Positions 4,401 through 38,614 of a stretch of DNA of 64,000 nucleotides are shown in pieces. Made by a program: the position numbers and the translations under genes. The notes beneath the pieces are model-generated. The model worked only from the letters and a program-made list of their open reading frames with translations, was not told the origin of the DNA and ran no database searches. The stretch lies in the NCBI GenBank assembly GCA_964354805.1, contig CAYHBD010000042.1, forward strand, positions 18,038 through 82,037. Direction: 5' to 3'. Numbering within the stretch: the first letter of the stretch is position 1; each line of letters begins with the position of its first letter. Origin of the DNA: an uncultured archaeon (GTDB taxonomy: Archaea > Iainarchaeota > Iainarchaeia > Iainarchaeales > GCA-2688035).

Positions 4401-5806
4401 TCTCCGAAAGTGAATTCCAGGGCGTGCTTTCCAGCCATCAAAACCTTGCTGGTTTCATAGCCTGTTTCATTGCATTCAAAGTTTCGGACAACAACAGCGC
4501 CGTCAATCCATTCGTATGGAATAACAGTTGAACCGCAGCGTATTTCCAAAAACCGCAATTGCTCTGAATCGCTTGAATTGCTCCAGGTTGTGCCGTTAAC
4601 CGCTTTTATTGCCAGGTCTGCTTTTCCAATTGTATTGAACCTGACTTCCCATTCCCCGCCAACTTGGGGATAGCTTTGCACGTTTATTATCGTGATTTCC
4701 GCGAAGCCAAAGACAGGGTCTTCTGGCGAAATGCTTATTGTTAGTGGTTCGTTGCCTGTGAAGGTTTTAACTGTCTGCCATTCTCCAGTGCAGCTGCTTG
4801 TTTCGCTGTTCCAGTCTTTGCATTTCAACACAGCGTTTGTCCCGCTTGGCGGTGAAAGCTGCAATTCGCCTGATGCAAATTCGCTTGCCGGATTTAACAG
4901 GAATGGCTTTTTTACTTCAATTCCGCTTTTTGTTTTGGTATTTTGCAGAAGCCGCAGCTCCAATAGGTTTGAATCGCCGCCTATTGCGGCTTTTCTGAGT
5001 ACTATTTTTTTAACTGAATTGTCGTCAATTTCCAATTCAACATCAAAGATTCCCTTGAATGCTTCCTCTTCGCCGGTTATTTCAGCCCCAAAAATTTCAG
5101 GTTTCTCTATTCCTGCTGTTGGCTGTTCTATGCTTCCTATAACAGCGCCATTTTCATCAATCAACCTCATTTTGTAGCCTATTTCTTTGCCTTCGCTGTC
5201 CTTTATGGAAACAGGGGGCAAAATCTTGGTTTCCTGCACTGATTCAATTATAACGCTTTCCTCTGCTTCTTCTCCCGTTTCTTCGATTATAACTATTTCC
5301 TCGCTTTCTGCCTTTGGCAAGTGCACGCATTTTGCTTCGCATGTTCCATCGTTGTTGCATAAATCAAGTGAAAGGGCGTTTGCGTCATCGCAGTCAATGT
5401 CGTTATTGCAGGCTATTTTGCATTCCGGCTGAATTAAAGCATTGGTGCAGTATGATTCGCAAGTGCCTTCATTATTGCATACATCAAGTGTTGCCGAATC
5501 CAAGTCATCGCAGTCTGAATCAGCACTGCAGGCTATCTCACATTCAGGCTGAACAGCTATGTTTGTACAATACGATTCGCAAGTGCCATCGCTGTTGCAT
5601 ACATCAATTGTTGTGGCTATCTTGTCATCGCAGCCTGAATCATTGTAGCAGGCAATTGCGCACCCTGGTGCATTCGCATCTGGGCCGTTGCCTAAGGCAG
5701 CGTATGCAAGCATTGTTGTGCTTATGGCTATCACAAGCAGCAGGAACAGCGCGCTTGAAACAATGCTGTGCCTGCCCTGCTGGCGCAGCAGCAATCGCCG
5801 TACCAA
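1..5806 (-). CDS. giant secreted or surface-anchored repeat protein (at least 1,930 aa; C-terminus lies beyond the left edge)
   Basis: My own reverse-strand translation gives one open frame from an in-frame TGA near 5878 down to position 1. It is absent from the ORF track because no stop is reached. The N-terminus VRRLLLRQQGRHSIVSSALFLLLVIAISTTMLAYA is a basic stretch plus a hydrophobic signal/anchor. There is no ATG upstream of the hydrophobic core; candidate starts are TTG 5806 or GTG 5875. Downstream come Cys-rich repeats, beta-modules, a DUF2341-like block (WPYRMKLYF..DLRFFDSDG..YYEIDDWN) plus a LamG-like block (..GYLDEVRI..), and Ig-like modules. Confidence 0.85.
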   Translation of the reverse strand, partial: MVRRLLLRQQGRHSIVSSALFLLLVIAISTTMLAYAALGNGPDANAPGCAIACYNDSGCDDKIATTIDVCNSDGTCESYCTNIAVQPECEIACSADSDCDDLDSATLDVCNNEGTCESYCTNALIQPECKIACNNDIDCDDANALSLDLCNNDGTCEAKCVHLPKAESEEIVIIEETGEEAEESVIIESVQETKILPPVSIKDSEGKEIGYKMRLIDENGAVIGSIEQPTAGIEKPEIFGAEITGEEEAFKGIFDVELEIDDNSVKKIVLRKAAIGGDSNLLELRLLQNTKTKSGIEVKKPFLLNPASEFASGELQLSPPSGTNAVLKCKDWNSETSSCTGEWQTVKTFTGNEPLTISISPEDPVFGFAEITIINVQSYPQVGGEWEVRFNTIGKADLAIKAVNGTTWSNSSDSEQLRFLEIRCGSTVIPYEWIDGAVVVRNFECNETGYETSKVLMAGKHALEFTFGEDVKYAYNQAGMLVKYGSFAKPNATTGNQAITGVGFQPKLVIFFGNYKTADGTDVNAQEFFGAATSSTRRAVIASASKDNVIAACKKRWSNALCITQISVSTLGTGAASLVNAEADFVSMNADGFTINWTTCDASQRIINYIALGGDDLTNASVGSFLSPTGVADTAVSVGFTPDALIIFDNTVTTTPTAAGSVNNNAFNIGFVVGTTKQNSRVTMRQSQTTGVSNTYGYQRTNSCQNTLSGTGVAVRTAVIKSMDSNGFTLTFSGTPGTAVYINYIALKGGQYDTGSFNEATSTGNQSVTTGFTPSGVIFQSAGNATSAAVSSVSRISFGVGVSASERGSIWSGDLDNKATSVADSDLNRTRVLRFLVEGPPIFGADMDFVSNDSTGFTVNNTTVDGNAREILYFAFGNAAAATPTPDANVAYPEKGETFSRDVLSTVDVNITVQDNDTNTFTMTVDLNYSTSQTQGTGTVIVDDSNLATWNCDSNNLKTVQYCKYRWTISNVPNGNYYILSEVNDGSNRDFNAGEATFTITTSNQSPDANVVYPENDENFNRDITPTIDVNVYVRDLDNNSFDLNIDLNYSSSQTQGTGTAIINDVNLATLNCDSNDLSTARYCKYNWNISSVQAGNYYILTTVNDRYNIDFNAGEKDFNIWCAGSWPYRMKLYFKNIYQTGDLFDFPVMVKLDPTRIDYSKVGRSNGGDLRFFDSDGSSLYYEIDDWNTAGDSVIWVRVPKVDKSSNTDYIYMDYGNPCTTDGNNNALVWDGNYRAVYHFAELDGNYFDSTANNNDSNVVRITSRNNTDANGLGHYPFFVSITNQDGDHVGVPHNDSLNLELGGFTLSVRANAETGRTLTDSDLVRKGCTGTNNWWKLEWGDEATNNSIHLNIRPDGIDYHLNYTKVPDSLWHDIAGVRDAANTTESLYLDGTRVVGPSAGADGNVSNTWNMGIGSKDTLNDDHFDGYLDEVRIQSIARDGNWLRAERFSFDDNFITYNALPNATIWKVETSDLNAAMPSFTYASDGNLTIKFRATDQDNDDLNFNMWYGISANSKTNKIIGDVNLSTNTSKGACDTNSKSGMVCNWDFNISGVSDNNYWVTVEINDGSDTNTVTTQKSFRVNPPAGPANNVPDVNIWKVDNRDFNAALPKFKYETDGNLTIKFRTSDLDGTQDLNFNMWYGTSANAKTNKIIGDVNLSTNTIKGACDTNSKTTGMVCRWDFNIHRQFVVDNNYWVTIEVNDGTDSNTATTQKSFRVIVNRAPDANIWKVDNWDLNAALPAFSYVKDGNLAIKFRVDDNESNDLNFNMWYGASANAKTTRIINDVNLSTNAGFGSCDTNAKTGMVCQWDWNISGIADNNYWVTIEIKDGVDSNTVTTQKSFAVDNTVPDVNVWNVDGHDVGFAMPSYSYSVDGNLTIDFNVATGDVNYGIHYADINYSTTSTQGSGTAIRTNLDVDGNRCVTNLGKTTSIYGYW
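2440..3150 (-). repeat. two further copies of a related ~120 aa module, N-terminal to the DUF2341/LamG block
   Basis: PDANV.YPE....F.RD....(V/I)DVN..V.D.D.N.F....DLNYS.SQTQGTGT.I..D.NLAT.NCDSN.L....YCKY.W.IS.V..GNYYIL..VND. Nucleotide similarity at ~2510 vs ~2877 (period ~365 nt). Confidence 0.8.
3165..4350 (-). repeat. three ~115-130 aa modules with signature GF.P..(V/I)IF ... (S)M(D/N)..GFT.N ... (I)NYIAL(G/K)GG
   Basis: Seen in my translation: TGVGFQPKLVIFFG..SMNADGFTINWT..IINYIALGGDD; SVGFTPDALIIFDN..SMDSNGFTLTFS..YINYIALKGGQ; TTGFTPSGVIFQSA..SNDSTGFTVNNT..ILYFAFGNAA. Confidence 0.7.
5335..5690 (-). repeat. three tandem 120-nt (40 aa) Cys/Asp-rich repeats
   Basis: The peptide C.IAC..D.DCDD.....(T/S).D.CN..GTCE..C........PE occurs three times. 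The nucleotide anchor gattcgcaagtgcc(t/a)tc lies at 5453 and 5573, with a degenerate copy at ~5341. Confidence 0.85.
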
Positions 5807-5846: not shown

Positions 5847-6227
5847 CTACCTTGTTGCTGCGGCAATTTTCGCACCCCCTGTCATAGTTTGTTGGTTGGG
5901 CTTTTGTTTTGCAGAGCAAAACTCTTTTTTCCCAAGGCTTTTGCACTGTAGTGCAAAAGGCTTTTGTTTTGCAAACGGCAATTCTTTTGCTTCCAGCGCT
6001 ACAGGCGCAGTGCTGCTTTGCTCTATTCTGATGCATTTGCCCCTTGGGATAATTGTAGGCCTGCTGTTGCTGTTTTCAATTACCATCAGGTTGAATGAGT
6101 CGAAATCGAAGAATTTGCCTTCTTTGAATGAAACTGTGTTGGCTGTGTCGTTGTAGAAAACGCTTATCTCTTTTCCAAGTATTTCAAACAGCAGCTTGTC
6201 CTCCTTTTTGCCGTTCATTGCCCGCAT
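5847..6227 (-). CDS. Sm/LSm-like small protein, paralog 2, with an aberrant C-terminal tail
   Basis: The core MNGKKEDKLLFEILGKEISVFYNDTANTVSFKEGKFFDFDSFNLMVIENSNSRPTIIPRGKCIRIE is collinear with the upstream 74-aa paralog. The pattern resembles Sm1/Sm2 (G.l..fD..mNl.l.......ir...I..I). The track start at 6353 overlaps the upstream gene; ATG 6227 or 6218 fit the paralog's N-terminus. The ~55 aa tail crosses a palindromic element. Confidence 0.5.
   Translation of the reverse strand: MRAMNGKKEDKLLFEILGKEISVFYNDTANTVSFKEGKFFDFDSFNLMVIENSNSRPTIIPRGKCIRIEQSSTAPVALEAKELPFAKQKPFALQCKSLGKKEFCSAKQKPNQQTMTGGAKIAAATR
5925..5963 (-). repeat. palindromic element family A, copy 1
   Basis: Minus-strand reading: AAGCCTTTTGCACTACAGTGCAAAAGCCTTGGGAAAAAA. 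It lies in the 3' tail of ORF 5847..6353 and just upstream of the giant gene's start. Confidence 0.8.
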
Positions 6228-6313
6228 TCTGAAGATTGCCTTGGTTGAACGCTGCGCTGTCATTGGCTTGCCCCCTGCAATTTGAGGCACTGCCTTGGTT
6301 GAATGCTGAACGC

Positions 6314-6538
6314 TCATTGCTGTTCCTCTCCCGCTACTTCTATTCTTATGCATTTGTCTCTCGGGATGAGCGTTGGCTTGTTGTTGCTGTTTTCAAGTAT
6401 CTTTAAATTGCTGTTGTCAAAGTCGAGGAAGGTGCCGACTTTGAAAGAAACGGATTCAAAGGTATCATTATAGAAAATAGAGACTATTTTCCCCAAGCTA
6501 TCGCTGAGTAGCTTGTCCTTTCTATACTCCACCAACAA
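6314..6538 (-). CDS. Sm/LSm-like small protein, paralog 1
   Basis: 74 aa: KLLSDSLGKIVSIFYNDTFESVSFKVGTFLDFDNSNLKILENSNNKPTLIPRDKCIRIE. The assignment to an Sm-like fold rests on pattern only. Confidence 0.5.
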   Translation of the reverse strand: MLVEYRKDKLLSDSLGKIVSIFYNDTFESVSFKVGTFLDFDNSNLKILENSNNKPTLIPRDKCIRIEVAGEEQQ

Positions 6539-6941: not shown

Positions 6942-7847
6942 TCAGCGTAAGTATTCCAGCGTGTTGCTCCAGATGCCCGGGGTCATTGACGGGTCGTAGT
7001 TGAAGTAAACGACTTTTCCAATAAGCAGCCTCTTTTCAACTATTGCCGGGTAATAGGATGCTGTTGCAATGTTTTTGATGTATGCAATTATGTTTCCTGT
7101 TGGCTTTACGTCAAAGGTGATTATTGTCAGCGGCCCGTAAGCAGGGTCTGCCGGCGCTACTTCAATGCCCTCCATTATTTTGCTGTCATAGTCAACCCTG
7201 TGGACTTTTCCTGTTAAAACAATCGGCTGGACGCAGGTTGCCCTGTCGTTCGTGCCAATGTCGCAGTCTACAGGAATAATGTCTCTGAATGTTGCGCCCC
7301 ATCCGATTACGTCTGATGCAACGCCTGTTCCGTAAATTCCGCCGCTCCTGTAAATGCCTGAATCCATTACAACAACCAGCTTTCCGCCTGTTTTAACGTA
7401 ATTTTCAATCGCTTCTCCAAGTGTCCTTGAAACGCTTTTCTGGTAAGGGTTTGCGCCCAAATGCTGGTCAAGCAGAATGACATCGTATTGGGCAAGCTGT
7501 TCCCTTGGTGCAAACTCTAGGCCTGCCGGCTCTTTTATCTGGTAATAAACAAGGTCTCTCTGCGTGTCCAAATCAGACATTAAATGAATGCTCGGCTCTC
7601 CGATTACAAGCATTTTAATCGGGCCCCTGTCCCCCAAAAATGGAATCTGCCATAGGCCGAACCTGTGGCCCAAAAAAGCGGCAATGATAATAATCAAAAT
7701 CAGCGGGATTAATCCCTCGAGGTTTCTTGAAACAATAGAGCGCCTGCCTGATTGAGCAGGCATTGCTTCAGCACCGCCTTCTTCAGGATACATTCTTTCA
7801 ATCACCTTGTCAATTTTTTCCAAAATTGCTTTTAATCTTTTTCCCAA
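6942..7847 (-). CDS. membrane-anchored protein with a Rossmann-like (GATase1/ThuA-like) external domain; start uncertain
   Basis: TM segment LIPLILIIIIAAFLG, then KMLVIGEPS..YDVILLDQ..IENYVKTGGKLVVVMDSG. It has the same architecture as the neighbour 8037..9041. The track start is a TTG inside a palindromic element; the first ATG is at 7793. Confidence 0.55.
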   Translation of the reverse strand: MGKRLKAILEKIDKVIERMYPEEGGAEAMPAQSGRRSIVSRNLEGLIPLILIIIIAAFLGHRFGLWQIPFLGDRGPIKMLVIGEPSIHLMSDLDTQRDLVYYQIKEPAGLEFAPREQLAQYDVILLDQHLGANPYQKSVSRTLGEAIENYVKTGGKLVVVMDSGIYRSGGIYGTGVASDVIGWGATFRDIIPVDCDIGTNDRATCVQPIVLTGKVHRVDYDSKIMEGIEVAPADPAYGPLTIITFDVKPTGNIIAYIKNIATASYYPAIVEKRLLIGKVVYFNYDPSMTPGIWSNTLEYLR

Positions 7848-7875
7848 GGCTTTTTTGCGGAAGCAAAAAAGGCTT
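7838..7875 (-). repeat. palindromic element family A, copy 2
   Basis: Minus-strand reading: AAGCCTTTTTTGCTTCCGCAAAAAAGCCTTGGGAAAAA. It is identical to the ileS and tRNA-Pro(UGG) copies except for the loop. Confidence 0.85.
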
Positions 7876-10461: not shown

Positions 10462-13383
10462 TCATTTCTTTAACTCAATTGAAAAGCTTCTTTCAATCAG
10501 CTTTTCTTTCACTTCTTTCTCAACAATCTGCATTGCGGTGTTTGTCTCTTTTTCAATCCATTTTCTGTTGCCCTGCAAAAAGCTTTTGTCATCGCAGGCA
10601 ACCAGCAGTAGTGCTTTTTGCTGGGGTAGCAGGTTTGCCTGCTTTCTCATCTCCTGAATCCTTCTCCTGAGTTCCTGCAGCTCCCACTCATTCCGCAGCT
10701 GCCCATCGGCATCCAAAAGCAAAAACAGCTTTGCGCCTGCAGCATCAGCCCTTGCATAATTTCCGCTTGGCTCTGCTGTTGCTTCAACAACGCGCTTTAC
10801 ATTGCAGCTGCTTGCAATAACACTGTGCACTTTGCTGAACTGCTTTCCTTTGCCAGAGGCAGACTTTTTCCCAAGGCTTTTTTGCTTTGGCAAAAAAGGC
10901 TTTTTTTCTGTTACAATGACAAGTTCCCTCAAAGGCCAGCGCAGCCGCAGTTTCTGCTGCTCTCTCAAAGAAAGAACAGCCTGGGTTAATTCTTTTGCGG
11001 AATCAAACTGCTTTTCCAGTTCAGGGTCAACCAGTTTTTTTTCAACGGCAGGCAGCTGCCTCAAGTGAATTGACAAGGGCATTTTTCCATTTCGCAAATG
11101 CTGGTAAATGTATTCGGTTATGTGCGGGGTGATTGGGGAAAGCAGCAAAAGCAGGCCGTCAATTACAGCCGACATTGTCTTGTTCACTGCCTGCGCTGTT
11201 TTTCCTTCTGTCCTGCCCCTGATTAATTTAATGTATGTCCTGCTCAAATCCTCTAAAACGAATTGCTCTATTGCTGCAGTTGCCCTGAAAAAATTATAGC
11301 TGTTATAAGCATCTGTTGCTGTTTCAATTAATGAATTCAGTTTGCTCAGAATCCACTTGTCTTCAACCTGCAAGCTAAGGGTGCTGATTTTTTTGCCCTT
11401 TGCAATGTCCAGCTTCAGATACATGTTCGCGTAGTTGAAGCAGTTCCAGAAGATTGAAAAGAAGCGGTGGATGTCCTTGAAGCTGTCCCAGTCAAAGGCA
11501 AAGTCCTCGCCCTTGCTTGTTGCAGTTAGATAATAGCGCAGGTAATCCCTGCTGTGTTTTTCAATTACCTCTTTCGGCTGGACTGCATTGCCCTTGCTTT
11601 TGCTCATTTTCCTTTTCTCAATGTCAAGCACAAGGCCGTGGACTGAAATTGTTTTGAAGGGCGCTTTGTCAAAAGCAATTGTTGAAAGGATTAACTCACT
11701 GTTCCACCATCCCCTAAACTGGTCTGTTCCCTCAAGATTGAGGTCGGCTGGCCAGAAGCGCTTGAACAATGCGCTGCTTGCAGGGAAACCGAGTGCTGCC
11801 CAGCTGCTGACTCCGGAATCAAACCAAACATCCAGAACCTCAGATACTCTGCGCATTTTTGCGCCGCAGCTGCATTTTATTTCCACTGAATCAATTTCCG
11901 GCTTGTGCAATTCCTTTACTTTCTTTCCGCTCAATTTTTGCAGTTCTTTTAAGCTGCCAATTACTTTCTGCTCTTTGCATTTGCCGCACTGCCAGATTGG
12001 AATTGGAGTTCCCCAATAACGGGCCCTTGAAATTGGCCAGTCTCCAATGCTTTCGAGCCAGTTCTGCATCCTGCTCTGCATCCAATCCGGAACCCACTGC
12101 ACTTTGCCGTTCAATTCAATCATTCTTTTCTGAATGCTGCTTATTTTGAAAAACCATTGCGGAACTGAAAGCATGAGCAAAGGATTTTTGCATCTCCAGC
12201 ACAATGGGTAATCGTGCGTGTAAGGGTGCCTGTAAACCAATGCATTTGCTTGCTCCAAATCGGCGATTATTTCCTTGTCCACTTCCCTGCATCTTTTGCC
12301 TGAATACTTTCCTGCTTCAGCTGTCATCAAGCCATTCAATTGCACTGGCGAAATTGCCGGCAGGCCTGCCTTGCTGCCTGCATCAAAGTCCTCTTTTCCA
12401 TGCCCTGGCGCGCTGTGAACCAGGCCTGTTCCTTCTTCAAGATTAACGTACCGCTCGCTTAGAATTACTCTGTAAGCGTTTTTCAGCGGAGGCAATTGCA
12501 GGTGCTTTGCAAGCGGGTTCTCGTACTGCATTCCCTGCAATTCTTTTCCCTTAACTGTTTTTTCAATTGTAAAGCCTGCCTCAATCGCTGCCATCAATTC
12601 CTGCACTTTTTCCTTTGCAATCACCCATGTTTCGCCATTGCTCATTTTTGCAAAAGAGTAATCAAATGCAGGGTGGACCATCACCCCGGTGTTTCCAGGC
12701 AGTGTCCAGGGAGTTGTTGTCCAGACAACGAGGAAAGTGTTCTCTTCTCCTTTCACTTTGAATTTCACAAAAACAGCTTCATCTGTCAGTTTGCTGTACT
12801 CGATTTCATTGAATGCAACTGCTGTTTCGCATCTCGGGCAGACATGCACAGGGTAAAGCCCTTTGTACAGCAGGCCTTTTTCTTCCGCTTTTTTGAAAGT
12901 CCACCAGATTGCCTCAATGTATTCATTGCTCAAAGTGAGATATGGATTCTGCCAGCCCATCCAAACGCCCAAGTCATTGAATTCGTTGTTCATTACATCA
13001 ATGAACTGCGTTGCATACTGCTTGCATTCTTTAATGAATTTCCCCACTCCGTATTGTTCGATGTCCTGCTTTGATTTGAAGCCCAGCTTTTCCTCAACCT
13101 TGTTTTCAATCGGCAATCCATGGCAGTCATAGCCAGGCCTGTCGAAAACATTGCAGCCCTGCATTCTCCTGCTTCTGATTGCAACATCCTTTTGGATCTT
13201 GTTCAAAGCAGTCCCCATGTGGATGTGGCCTGTTGCATAAGGCGGGCCGTCCATGAAATAAAAAGCCTTTTTCTGCTTGCCACTCTGTTTCCTAACCAAG
13301 GCAGGCACTTTCCTTTTTAGCCAGAAGCGTGTTATTTCCTCTTCCTTCTGCCTGCTGTATGGCTCAAGTAATTTTTCGGGCAT
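10462..13383 (-). CDS. ileS: isoleucyl-tRNA synthetase
   Basis: 973 aa. PYATGHIHMGTALNK is the HIGH-type motif and KMSKSKGN the KMSKS motif. An editing-domain-sized insertion and a Zn-finger-like CPRC..C are present. Confidence 0.9.
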   Translation of the reverse strand: MPEKLLEPYSRQKEEEITRFWLKRKVPALVRKQSGKQKKAFYFMDGPPYATGHIHMGTALNKIQKDVAIRSRRMQGCNVFDRPGYDCHGLPIENKVEEKLGFKSKQDIEQYGVGKFIKECKQYATQFIDVMNNEFNDLGVWMGWQNPYLTLSNEYIEAIWWTFKKAEEKGLLYKGLYPVHVCPRCETAVAFNEIEYSKLTDEAVFVKFKVKGEENTFLVVWTTTPWTLPGNTGVMVHPAFDYSFAKMSNGETWVIAKEKVQELMAAIEAGFTIEKTVKGKELQGMQYENPLAKHLQLPPLKNAYRVILSERYVNLEEGTGLVHSAPGHGKEDFDAGSKAGLPAISPVQLNGLMTAEAGKYSGKRCREVDKEIIADLEQANALVYRHPYTHDYPLCWRCKNPLLMLSVPQWFFKISSIQKRMIELNGKVQWVPDWMQSRMQNWLESIGDWPISRARYWGTPIPIWQCGKCKEQKVIGSLKELQKLSGKKVKELHKPEIDSVEIKCSCGAKMRRVSEVLDVWFDSGVSSWAALGFPASSALFKRFWPADLNLEGTDQFRGWWNSELILSTIAFDKAPFKTISVHGLVLDIEKRKMSKSKGNAVQPKEVIEKHSRDYLRYYLTATSKGEDFAFDWDSFKDIHRFFSIFWNCFNYANMYLKLDIAKGKKISTLSLQVEDKWILSKLNSLIETATDAYNSYNFFRATAAIEQFVLEDLSRTYIKLIRGRTEGKTAQAVNKTMSAVIDGLLLLLSPITPHITEYIYQHLRNGKMPLSIHLRQLPAVEKKLVDPELEKQFDSAKELTQAVLSLREQQKLRLRWPLRELVIVTEKKPFLPKQKSLGKKSASGKGKQFSKVHSVIASSCNVKRVVEATAEPSGNYARADAAGAKLFLLLDADGQLRNEWELQELRRRIQEMRKQANLLPQQKALLLVACDDKSFLQGNRKWIEKETNTAMQIVEKEVKEKLIERSFSIELKK
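10865..10902 (-). repeat. palindromic element family A, copy 3 (inside the ileS reading frame)
   Basis: Minus-strand reading: AAGCCTTTTTTGCCAAAGCAAAAAAGCCTTGGGAAAAA. It is translated in frame as KKPFLPKQKSLGKK. Confidence 0.85.
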
Positions 13384-14220: not shown

Positions 14221-14339
14221 TGGGCCCGGAGAGACTCGAACTCTCGACCCTTGGTGCGCTAACAGGGCAACAAGATGCCGAAATGAATTCACTCATCACC
14301 CTGCTATAAGACCAATGCTCTGCCGCTAAGCTACGGGCC
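14221..14339 (-). tRNA. tRNA-Ile (anticodon UAU as read) with a 48-nt intron after position 37
   Basis: Hand fold: GGGCCCG-TA-GCTT-AGCGGCA-GAGC-A-TTGGT-CTTATA[intron 14256..14303]C-ACCAA-GGGTC-GAGAG-TTCGAGT-CTCTC-CGGGCCC-A. All four stems pair. Confidence 0.8.
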
Positions 14340-14340
14340 C

Positions 14341-19670: not shown

Positions 19671-20261
19671 ATGATTGGCGCAATTGGGCTGTTTTTGCTG
19701 GAGCGAAAGCTGCTGATGGTTGCCAAAATCGGCAAGGGCCACAGCAGTGAAATATTTGCCGTAAAAAATGGCGCAGGGCAAAAATTTGTTTTAAAGGCAG
19801 AGAAAAGCGGCAGCCAGCGCTTCCAGATGGCTGAAAGGGAAGTGGAAAACCTGCGCAAGGCAAACAGCCTTGGCATTGGGCCAAGGCTGGTTGATTTTGA
19901 TTTGGAAAAAAGGGCGATTCTAATGGAATTTGTTGAGGGCAAAACCTTTGCCCAATGGCTTTTTTCACAGCCCACGAAAAAAGAATTGCTTCTTTTTGCA
20001 AAAGAATTGGTTGAACAGGCAAAAGCGCTTGACTTAATCGGCTTGGACCATGGCCAGCTTGCTGGCGCAGGAAAAAACATTCTTGTAAGGGAGGGCAAGC
20101 CAGTGATAATTGATTTCGAGAAGGCAAGCTGCAGCAGGAAATGCCACAATCTTTCCGTGATTAAGGCATTCCTTTTCAGGAACCCGAACAGCGCCATTGC
20201 CAGAAAGGCAAAAGAAATACTGGGAAAAAAAGAAGCTGAAAAATTGCTTTCCCAAAAATAA
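19671..20261 (+). CDS. small Bud32/RIO-like (COG2112-type) putative protein kinase
   Basis: IGKGHSSEIF..KFVLKAEK (Gly-loop plus Lys), ILMEFVEG (hinge), LDHGQLAGAGKNILV..VIIDFEKAS (catalytic-loop/DFG-like). Confidence 0.55.
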   Translation: MIGAIGLFLLERKLLMVAKIGKGHSSEIFAVKNGAGQKFVLKAEKSGSQRFQMAEREVENLRKANSLGIGPRLVDFDLEKRAILMEFVEGKTFAQWLFSQPTKKELLLFAKELVEQAKALDLIGLDHGQLAGAGKNILVREGKPVIIDFEKASCSRKCHNLSVIKAFLFRNPNSAIARKAKEILGKKEAEKLLSQK

Positions 20262-20387: not shown

Positions 20388-20412
20388 ACAGCCTTTTCTT
20401 AAAAAGAAAAGG
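20388..20412. terminator. perfect 11-bp hairpin between convergent genes
   Basis: AGCCTTTTCTT-aaa-AAGAAAAGGCT. It lies 3' of both 19671..20261(+) and 20430..20843(-). Confidence 0.6.
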
Positions 20413-20429
20413 CTGGCGAAAAGAAGACT

Positions 20430-38532: not shown

Positions 38533-38614
38533 TTTTTTCCTAAGGCTTTTTGCACGCGAAGCTATTTTCCCAAGGCTTTTGCCAACAGGCAAAAGGCTTA
38601 AAGCAAAAAGGCTT
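38533..38614 (-). repeat. palindromic element family A, copies 4 and 5: one element nested in the loop of another
   Basis: Outer (plus-strand reading): ttttttcctAAGGCTTTTTGC..GCAAAAAGGCTT. Inner (38565..38599): ttttcccAAGGCTTTTGCCaacaGGCAAAAGGCTT. Confidence 0.85.

Follow-up and report, generated by a model that had tools for sequence, protein, structure and literature searches.

The gene for isoleucyl-tRNA synthetase (ileS) on the stretch of DNA analysed here, 64,000 nucleotides from an uncultured archaeon of the Iainarchaeota (hereafter the window), contains a palindromic element of 39 nucleotides in the part that encodes the C-terminal domain of the enzyme. We consider it highly probable that the segment is a recent insertion of a dispersed hairpin-repeat unit which is translated with its host gene, in the manner of the Rickettsia palindromic elements (RPEs), and is not removed by splicing. 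The comparison of ileS alleles from close relatives indicates that the segment is a recent insertion at the level of the DNA. Judged by its sequence, the same module is also the 5′ body of tRNA introns in Iainarchaeota and DPANN archaea.

The ileS insertion and its empty site

The product of the window's ileS has nearly 8,000 homologs named isoleucine--tRNA ligase and contains the Pfam domains tRNA-synt_1 and Anticodon_1. Its nearest relatives are annotated as Candidatus Diapherotrites or Iainarchaeum, both DPANN archaea, and the G+C content of the window is about 43.5%. We refer to the element in ileS as copy B, to an intergenic copy as copy A and to the copy in the intron of tRNA-Pro(UGG) as copy C. 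Read on the minus strand, copy B (10864..10902) has the sequence AAGCCTTTTTTGCCAAAGCAAAAAAGCCTTGGGAAAAAG, with arms and loop AAGCCTTTTTTGC-CAAA-GCAAAAAAGCCTTGGGAAAAAG. It is made up of AAGCC, an 8-nt T-rich arm (TTTTTTGC), the loop CAAA, an A-rich arm (GCAAAAAA) and the tail GCCTTGGGAAAAAG. The halves of the stem are CTTTTTTGC and GCAAAAAAG, and an outer AAG/CTT pairing extends the stem past a C-C mismatch. The folding energy of a 111-nt ileS segment was no better than that of dinucleotide shuffles (z = 0.42), so the significance of this hairpin lies in its repetition and not in its thermodynamics. An Rfam scan at the element gave no matches other than tRNAs. Together with the AAA codon before it (10903..10905), copy B encodes the peptide KKPFLPKQKSLGKK in frame, and as read from the sequence it has no stop codons in any of the six frames. 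The original prediction, made from the letters of the sequence, had described such an in-frame palindromic element inside the synthetase and had called it essentially identical to the core of the tRNA-Pro(UGG) intron. Both descriptions hold: the element lies inside the 973-residue open reading frame (ORF), and copies B and C are identical at 36 of 39 bases, one of the three differences being compensatory, with a stem pair changed from G-C to C-G. The link to tRNA introns turned out to be broader than had been claimed.

To place the segment among related enzymes, the 60 best IleRS matches (the window protein and 59 others) were aligned over their C-terminal 330 residues. All 59 of the others read ...RWPL(K/R)E(L/I)V(I/V)VSK-TGKEF... 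without an insert, and the window protein reads ...RWPLRELVIVT-EKKPFLPKQKSLGKKSAS-GKGKQF..., with 18 extra residues. The 90%-identity cluster of the window IleRS contains three further sequences. In P0123 (956 aa, 90% identical, locus L140) the site is empty; its DNA there is GTTGTTTCAAAAAGCGGAAATCAATTC, read as GTT GTT TCA AAA AGC GGA AAT CAA TTC. Alignment of the DNA defines an insertion of 54 nt, or 18 codons, for which several equivalent placements exist because its junctions sit in A-rich microhomology. The inserted unit consists of the 39-nt element followed by TCTGCCTCTGGC, a small second hairpin (TGCC-TCT-GGCA). The segment is thus lineage-specific, which is the question that the original prediction had proposed to settle by aligning close homologs.

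A third allele is doubly filled. P0122 (1007 aa, 94% identical, locus L141) has the insert of the window plus two more hairpin inserts in the same gene. One of these is nested, a 54-nt insertion (18 residues) with two 8-bp hairpins that is placed exactly within the conserved GCCT^TGGG. The other lies about 150 residues upstream in the protein and is an insertion of 48 nt (16 residues); it is another family member in reversed orientation, located between AAAAGGCyTG direct repeats that represent the element's own end. Each of the three ileS insertions (54, 54 and 48 nt) has a length divisible by three and is in frame. The gene order tRNA-Ile(UAU) - ileS - deoxyhypusine synthase (DS) is kept in the window, L140 and L141. 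This makes the ileS alleles orthologous and rules out an artefact of assembly as the source of the insertion. As a separate observation, the IleRS homolog P0052 (1531 aa, Diapherotrites-type) has a Pfam PF14890 domain and about 570 additional residues. We take PF14890 to be an intein-splicing domain, in which case the IleRS of a relative would host another kind of selfish insert.

A dispersed family of hairpin repeats

The window was scanned with a 39-nt pattern of the element, leaving the loop free and allowing up to three mismatches, and compared with 100 shuffles. Three matches were obtained, copies A, B and C, all on the minus strand, where the shuffles predict 0. A covariance model built from 26 distinct 37-nt members found five strong minus-strand copies at 47-63 bits, one variant and one weak relative in the 64 kb (Table 1). 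Among those 26 members, variation is confined to 4 of the 12 pairs and affects both partners each time (30 double changes), the members having been preselected for at least 8 paired positions so that their 100% pairing is partly by construction. One further match, at 19947..19987 (21 bits) in a kinase-like gene, looks like ordinary coding sequence and was left uncounted.

Several of the window copies touch genes or other repeats. The tail of copy A overlaps the mechanically assigned TTG start of a 301-aa ORF (6942..7847, minus strand), as GCC TTG GGA AAA AG; an ATG 18 codons downstream may be the real start, which would put copy A in the 5′ leader. The copy at 5927..5963 spans, with its perfect repeats, 5897..5974 on the minus strand and lengthens a doubtful 168-aa ORF (5847..6353), where its peptide frame, KPF..K.LGKK, is the same as in ileS. 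A partial second tail is found near the copy at 38565..38599, at 38535..38548.

Outside the window, the exact 20-mer of the tail identified hairpin-bearing copies in several DPANN metagenome-assembled genomes (MAGs) among the GTDB representatives, including two Iainarchaeum MAGs, a Nanoarchaeota MAG, an uncultured archaeon and one 'archaeon SO_2017_SWC_5', the last with four contigs. Bacterial matches to the 20-mer lack the hairpin and are due to chance, except for one in a Falkowbacteria bin. This one (L016, 260..303; Candidatus Falkowbacteria, a bacterium of the candidate phyla radiation, CPR) is a complete element with its hairpin, and could represent either mis-binned DPANN DNA or a transfer between co-occurring ultra-small organisms. 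In Joint Genome Institute (JGI) metagenomes the structured pattern AAGCCTTTT-N(4-24)-AAAAGCCTTGGGAAAA recovered at least 120 stretches, which, pooled with the earlier loci and the window, gave at least 160 non-redundant copies. Among these there are at least 42 different 5′ arms, all self-complementary, with a perfect stem of 5-12 bp and a loop of mostly 3-4 nt. The ends of the family are constant, AAGCC at the 5′ side and GCCTTGGGAAAA at the 3′ side, and the T-rich and A-rich arms between them vary yet always pair. Beyond these ends the sole preference is a mild one for A at positions -1, -2 and +1. Elements are 29-48 nt long, occur inside ORFs in both orientations, and often stand in tandem with small G+C-rich hairpins between them. 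With crude ORF calling, the intergenic copies were co-directional in sense (21), antisense (10), between divergent genes (18) or between convergent genes (11), which shows no 3′-end bias like that of repetitive extragenic palindromic (REP) sequences and no clear role as terminators.

Copies in other protein genes behave like the one in ileS. An adenylate kinase contains an in-frame copy that adds 16 residues ahead of GFILDGFPR (aligned to PDB 5g3y) and splits the Pfam ADK match in two, and further in-frame copies are present in an HGSNAT-like membrane protein and in the zinc-ribbon tail of a topoisomerase. In-frame, stop-free insertion into several unrelated protein genes, as is typical of RPEs, is thus what we observe. 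Copies were also sought that stand between two long open frames of unlike phase; three candidates came up, all of them a gene start beside junk, and no true case. Freedom from stop codons in all six frames is seen in 56% of distinct family sequences; for random genomic segments the figure is 7.5%, and for composition-matched palindromes it is 30%. In a 530-aa ORF with no Pfam matches (L130 / L010), two tandem copies with a G+C-rich mini-hairpin between them are translated in frame, giving QSLFSAEKSLGKK PPAGG SLFSAEKSLGKE.

Table 1. Features of the window and of the related loci L140 and L141. Positions refer to the window unless a locus is named. CM, covariance model; BHB, bulge-helix-bulge motif with H central pairs and flanking helices h and h′.
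Feature	Position	Strand	Support and remarks
ileS, isoleucyl-tRNA synthetase coding sequence, host of the insertion	10462..13383	minus	973-aa ORF, translation, homologs
54-nt (18-codon) insertion relative to the empty allele	10852..10905	minus	DNA alignment with L140 and L141, protein alignments
Element copy B, 39 nt, in frame in ileS	10864..10902	minus	CM 60.7 bits, E = 2e-13 (model span 10866..10902)
Core hairpin of copy B, perfect 9-bp stem and 4-nt loop	10877..10898	minus	Centroid fold keeps this stem only
Element copy A, loop TTCC, between genes	7837..7875	minus	CM 62.7 bits (model span 7839..7875)
Element copy, arm TTTTGCAC, flanked by the 15-nt direct repeat TGCAAAACAAAAGCC	5927..5963	minus	CM 56.4 bits
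Element copy, arm TTTTGCC, in a spacer that separates two plus-strand genes	38565..38599	minus	CM 46.9 bits
Diverged weak relative between genes, CAGCC-TTTTCTT-AAA-AAGAAAA-GGCTG-GCGAAAAG	20389..20422	plus	CM 25.7 bits, E = 1.5e-4
tRNA-Pro(UGG), canonical 37/38 BHB intron 44587..44638 (52 nt)	44552..44678	minus	Rfam tRNA 40.3 bits; ARAGORN; BHB H = 4, h = 5, h′ = 3
Element copy C, from nucleotide 2 of the tRNA-Pro(UGG) intron	44599..44637	minus	CM 54.7 bits (model span 44601..44637)
tRNA-Pro(GGG), canonical 74-nt intron 44335..44408	44300..44448	minus	ARAGORN; BHB H = 4, h = 5, h′ = 2
Element variant, first 49 nt of the tRNA-Pro(GGG) intron	44360..44408	minus	CM 27.5 bits
tRNA-Ile(UAU), rare anticodon, just upstream of ileS	14221..14340	minus	Also at L140 3844..3963 and L141 4925..5115
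55-nt insertion directly after the 3′ end of tRNA-Ile(UAU), hairpin AAACCTTTT-TTTT-AAAAGGTTT	L141 about 5116..5175		8-nt direct repeat GGCCCAAT; without counterpart in the window

The element in tRNA introns

The two proline tRNAs of the window both contain textbook hBHBh′ introns, with four central pairs formed between anticodon-loop nucleotides 32-35 and the 3′ end of the intron, 3-nt bulges, and a cut after the second bulge nucleotide, the cleavage geometry stated in PMC2738675. These BHBs are made from tRNA-specific sequence, and the element forms the 5′ part of the intron. The variant in tRNA-Pro(GGG) reads AAGCCC-TTTTCTTTCTTTT-AGA-AAAAGAAAGAAAA-GCCCTTGTGG-AAAAGAAAGAAAA. A 350-aa ORF beside the pair (44730..45782, minus strand) is an orphan that had no homolog except itself in an index of 5.8 billion proteins.

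Of the pooled copies (at least 160), 11 fall inside tRNA introns predicted by ARAGORN (12 of 149 in a re-run), all in sense orientation and all starting at intron nucleotide 1 or 2. Their hosts are Val(CAC), Val(GAC), Gly(GCC), Pro(UGG), Arg(UCU), Ile(UAU), Ser(UGA), probably His(GUG), and an Ala tRNA with the intron in the D-loop. In the last case (L081, 251..386) the element-type intron starts from the D-loop region, after GGGCCTGTAGTCTAG, which is a non-canonical position. About 30 of the 43 introns in the loci examined, from at least 12 isoacceptor types, open with the module or a close variant, a proportion biased upward by the selection of loci that carry the element somewhere; many of the introns, however, are of variant forms that could not have been picked out by the search pattern. 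The layout of the module in introns is RGCC, T-rich arm, loop, A-rich arm, GCCyTGGG and A-rich tail. Highly similar introns across tRNA identities, the mark of a shared tRNA-intron family, are a property of the family and not of the ileS copy.

The tRNA-Ile(UAU) gene that accompanies ileS offers a case of intron exchange. In the window it has a 48-nt intron unrelated to the element, with a relaxed BHB at 37/38 (three of the four central pairs), and this intron is kept in L140. In the L141 gene a module-type intron of 119 nt takes its place, and nothing of the 48-nt intron remains. The comparison indicates that a whole-intron replacement has taken place between strains with 94% identical IleRS.

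Spliced intron or translated loop

The original prediction had left two readings of the ileS segment, a tolerated peptide insertion and an mRNA intron of the cbf5 type removed by the tRNA splicing endonuclease. The second would have EndA excise a BHB-type intron from the pre-mRNA and RtcB rejoin the ends, so that the mature enzyme lacks the peptide. The near identity of the element to a genuine BHB intron core speaks for it, as do the tRNA introns, at least 12 in number, whose 5′ splice site is where a family member starts, the return to the consensus protein length on removal of 54 nt, and the possibility that DPANN EndA enzymes have relaxed specificity, since DPANN splicing endonucleases carrying an L3 loop have been reported to take relaxed motifs (PMC5829648). 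However, the BHBs of the tRNAs are built from the anticodon loop and the tRNA-specific 3′ sequence of the intron, not from the element. We ran a BHB scanner, which recovers both tRNA-Pro introns as controls, over ileS for all intron lengths up to 200 nt, and enumerated the boundary pairs near the element (39-60 nt in steps of 3) that retain ELVIV and GKQF after removal. None of the pairs that restore ELVIV..GKQF has four central pairs. The best have H = 3 with weak flanking helices (h and h′ of 0-2), except for a single candidate of 51 nt (h = 0, h′ = 6). The two 3-nt bulges separated by 4 bp, which the original prediction had suggested looking for in the flanks, were thus found in no arrangement that gives back the consensus protein. 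The scan over all lengths yielded numerous candidates attributable to chance. A 54-nt candidate with H = 4, h = 3 and h′ = 3 (5′ cut after 10925, 3′ cut after 10871), the only well-formed BHB of the right length, was rejected as a chance motif because it deletes the perfectly conserved ELVIV strand and keeps the foreign KKSAS. The best ileS score, 7, compares with a mean of 7.46 +/- 1.34 at 1000 random places in ileS, 76% of which reach 7, and with scores of 11 and 10 for the two tRNA-Pro introns. Family copies outside tRNAs are not enriched in BHBs either: 6 of 137 have one at the analogous 5′ splice position, against 6.9 +/- 2.5 when the upstream flanks are permuted, a test of moderate sensitivity since the strict criterion catches 5 of the 12 tRNA copies. 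If coding copies were spliced, two thirds of them would be expected out of frame, yet the three ileS insertions and the other coding copies are all in frame. The ileS ORF is continuous, and the insert sits between the conserved ELVIV strand and the GKQF motif without splitting any conserved residue, so that no essential codon is disrupted, unlike the situation in cbf5 (PMC2738675). For these reasons we regard excision as very unlikely. The tolerated-peptide reading is favoured by the lineage specificity of the segment, its length as a multiple of three, its location in a predicted disordered loop and the in-frame family copies in unrelated proteins.

What the insert would do to the enzyme was judged from an AlphaFold2 model of the window IleRS based on a 73-sequence alignment (mean predicted local distance difference test score, pLDDT, 91; predicted template modelling score, pTM, 0.84). 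Only two segments fall below a pLDDT of 50, residues 590-598 beside the KMSKS motif and residues 829-843 (PFLPKQKSLGKKSAS), which are the insert. In the model the insert is a coil between the strand 818-825 (the conserved RELVIV) and a helix at 850-860; the aligned segment of the homologous strand in human cytoplasmic IleRS (PDB 9w01) is PLKEIVVI. The enzyme would then be made with an additional lysine-rich loop of 18 residues (about residues 826-843, six of the 18 being Lys) that is tolerated in the C-terminal domain, and translation of an unspliced mRNA into a floppy surface loop is, on this model, the most likely outcome. It could be argued that the insertion has been co-opted, the basic loop in the tRNA-facing C-terminal region improving the binding of tRNA or of a partner and being kept by selection. 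Such a role would fit the strongly basic character of the insert, its place in the C-terminal domain, and the fact that two lineages at 94% identity have retained and even enlarged it. The sister lineage that stands closest (90% identical) nevertheless does without it, as do all other homologs, and L141 tolerates 18 further, unrelated residues midway along the insert, an observation that speaks against a specific structure. Similar peptides (KPF..K.LGK) appear in unrelated ORFs wherever the element lands, so the composition of the insert is due to the repeat and not to selection; co-option is in our opinion unlikely. A chimeric join induced by the repeat during assembly or binning was also considered, since assemblers can be misled by short repeats and the DNA comes from a MAG. 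Here both flanks are collinear with ileS and in frame, and the same insertion is present at the same site, with conserved synteny, in the independent JGI assembly that provided L141. An artefact of this kind is therefore extremely improbable.

Some considerations weigh against a translated and tolerated insertion. The in-frame-only pattern of the coding copies is partly biased, intact ORFs being easier to recognise. A non-canonical cleavage of ileS RNA by a relaxed DPANN endonuclease is formally conceivable (PMC5829648). The low pLDDT of the insert is compatible with a surface loop and is no proof of disorder, as it is partly expected because no homolog covers the segment. Translation of the insert is something that we infer. 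Finally, the T6 run on the sense strand could be a partial archaeal terminator inside an essential gene, which selection would be expected to remove.

Possible mechanism of movement

Five insertion events could be inspected for their junctions. Direct repeats accompany four of them, are unequal in length and in three cases overlap the 5′ end of the element: AAAG, of about 4 nt, borders the main ileS insertion, CArGCCTTTT (10 nt) the insertion at the second site in L141, TGCAAAACAAAAGCC (15 nt) the copy at 5927..5963, and a repeat of 8 nt the insertion behind tRNA-Ile(UAU) in L141. Direct repeats are not evident at the nested ileS insertion of L141. A target-site duplication of fixed length, as expected of MITEs (miniature transposable elements that carry inverted repeats), is thus not seen in the five events. 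No associated transposase or REP-associated tyrosine transposase (RAYT) was identified, in work that included no systematic search for transposases. The empty ileS site (CAAAAAGCGG) already held AAAAAGC, which resembles the 5′ end of the element. This likeness between the target site and the element's own end argues for copying-in through short homology and not for a cut-and-paste transposase. The unit that moved would be the 39-nt element with its small second hairpin, 54 nt in all, which looks like one period of a tandem array, and it may have been copied into ileS through homology or microhomology, for example by template switching or by short-patch conversion from another copy. The reading frame of ileS stays open because stop codons are absent from every frame of the unit, whose length is 3 x 18 nt. 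At ileS the element would be selfish or neutral DNA.

The tail of the element provides a further lead. In members with G in the purine arm, the tail after GCCyTGGG repeats the arm in mirror order: AAGAAAA...AAAAGAA in 11 of 11 cases, AAAGAAAA...AAAAGAAA in 5 of 7 and GAAGAAAA...AAAAGAAG in 2 of 2. At informative positions the tail matches the mirror order in 62%, compared with 33 +/- 4% for permuted tails, figures in which the shared descent of subfamilies is not controlled. The tail as a direct repeat that closes an intron helix was considered and rejected, the match in direct order being 6% and no member having a tail that repeats the arm directly. Mirror tails are seen family-wide (L002, L019, L030, L036, L044, L046, L058, L066 and others) and in the window at 44335..44408; the ileS copy shows the A-run part of the pattern only. 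The resulting order, in which a pyrimidine arm is followed by the loop, the purine arm, an 8-nt linker and a mirrored purine tract, is that of an intramolecular purine-motif triplex, or of a T.A-T / C+.G-C triplex on the complementary strand, and the mirror-repeat covariation suggests a triplex-forming structure. A more far-reaching proposal can be built on this, in which the ileS insert is the footprint of a DPANN-wide mobile module that serves as a standard building block of tRNA introns and spreads both by whole-intron replacement and by homology-guided copying into AAAGCC-like sites, including those in ORFs, with an H-DNA-like triplex aiding recognition or movement. We offer it tentatively, as a possibility about which we are more doubtful than confident.

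Significance and comparison with known systems

For annotation, the practical consequence is that this ileS is intact and should not be called a frameshift, an intron or a pseudogene. The copy in ileS would by itself be a modest curiosity; the more interesting result is a family that links tRNA introns, intergenic repeats and in-frame insertions, and so joins dispersed palindromic repeats and tRNA introns that are usually treated apart. The empty, filled and doubly filled alleles of ileS allow direct comparison, and the intron swap in tRNA-Ile(UAU) makes the gain and movement of archaeal tRNA introns testable in a natural population. We found no published description of this family for DPANN or Diapherotrites tRNA introns or palindromic repeats, in a literature whose coverage was incomplete and which may hold an earlier description.

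The cbf5 pre-mRNA intron of Crenarchaeota has a relaxed BHB at its borders, splits the codon of the catalytic Asp and is removed in cDNA (PMC2738675). The ileS insert resembles it in being short (16-44 nt in cbf5, a multiple of three in some species) and in residing in an archaeal protein gene of a lineage rich in tRNA introns, and differs from it in lacking a BHB, in splitting no conserved residue and in its location in a loop. For the tRNA introns of Thermoproteales, intron transposition was inferred in 2010, as related in PMC4090602. As there, tRNAs of different identity share near-identical introns here, in L081 at a non-canonical position, and gain or swap at the DNA level is indicated; the present family belongs to another phylum, and its module is also abundant between genes and in ORFs, a feature that this review does not describe for the Thermoproteales introns.

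The family further shares with REP sequences, bacterial interspersed mosaic elements (BIMEs) and MITEs (PMC3733652, PMC10969869, PMC11602168) palindromes of 20-40 nt, a conserved head, covarying stems, hairpin mosaics, a high copy number and restriction of families to lineages. Its head is AAGCC, unlike the GTAG/CGTC of REP and BIME, its 3′ tail is GCCTTGGGAAAA, and its copies also occupy ORFs and tRNA introns. With regard to the terminal inverted repeats of MITEs, the arms of the element are inverted repeats, and their sequence varies between copies (at least 42 types). A census of MITEs reported high densities in some DPANN genomes and drew no link to introns. The closest parallel is provided by the RPEs, selfish palindromic repeats that occur in frame in protein genes (PMC10969869). 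Like them, the present elements are multi-copy palindromes that lie between genes and in frame in unrelated essential genes, at sites that the fold tolerates, and whose presence varies among close relatives. RPEs are bacterial, about 100-150 bp long and encode a conserved peptide, whereas the element described here is archaeal, has a variable stem with conserved ends only and is tied to tRNA introns. The likeness is thus one of analogy and not of membership, the two being set apart by size (37 versus 100-150 bp) and host domain, and kinship in sequence is not to be expected. By this analogy, the family could be an archaeal counterpart to the RPEs of Rickettsia, in which selfish repeats remodel essential proteins in reduced genomes.

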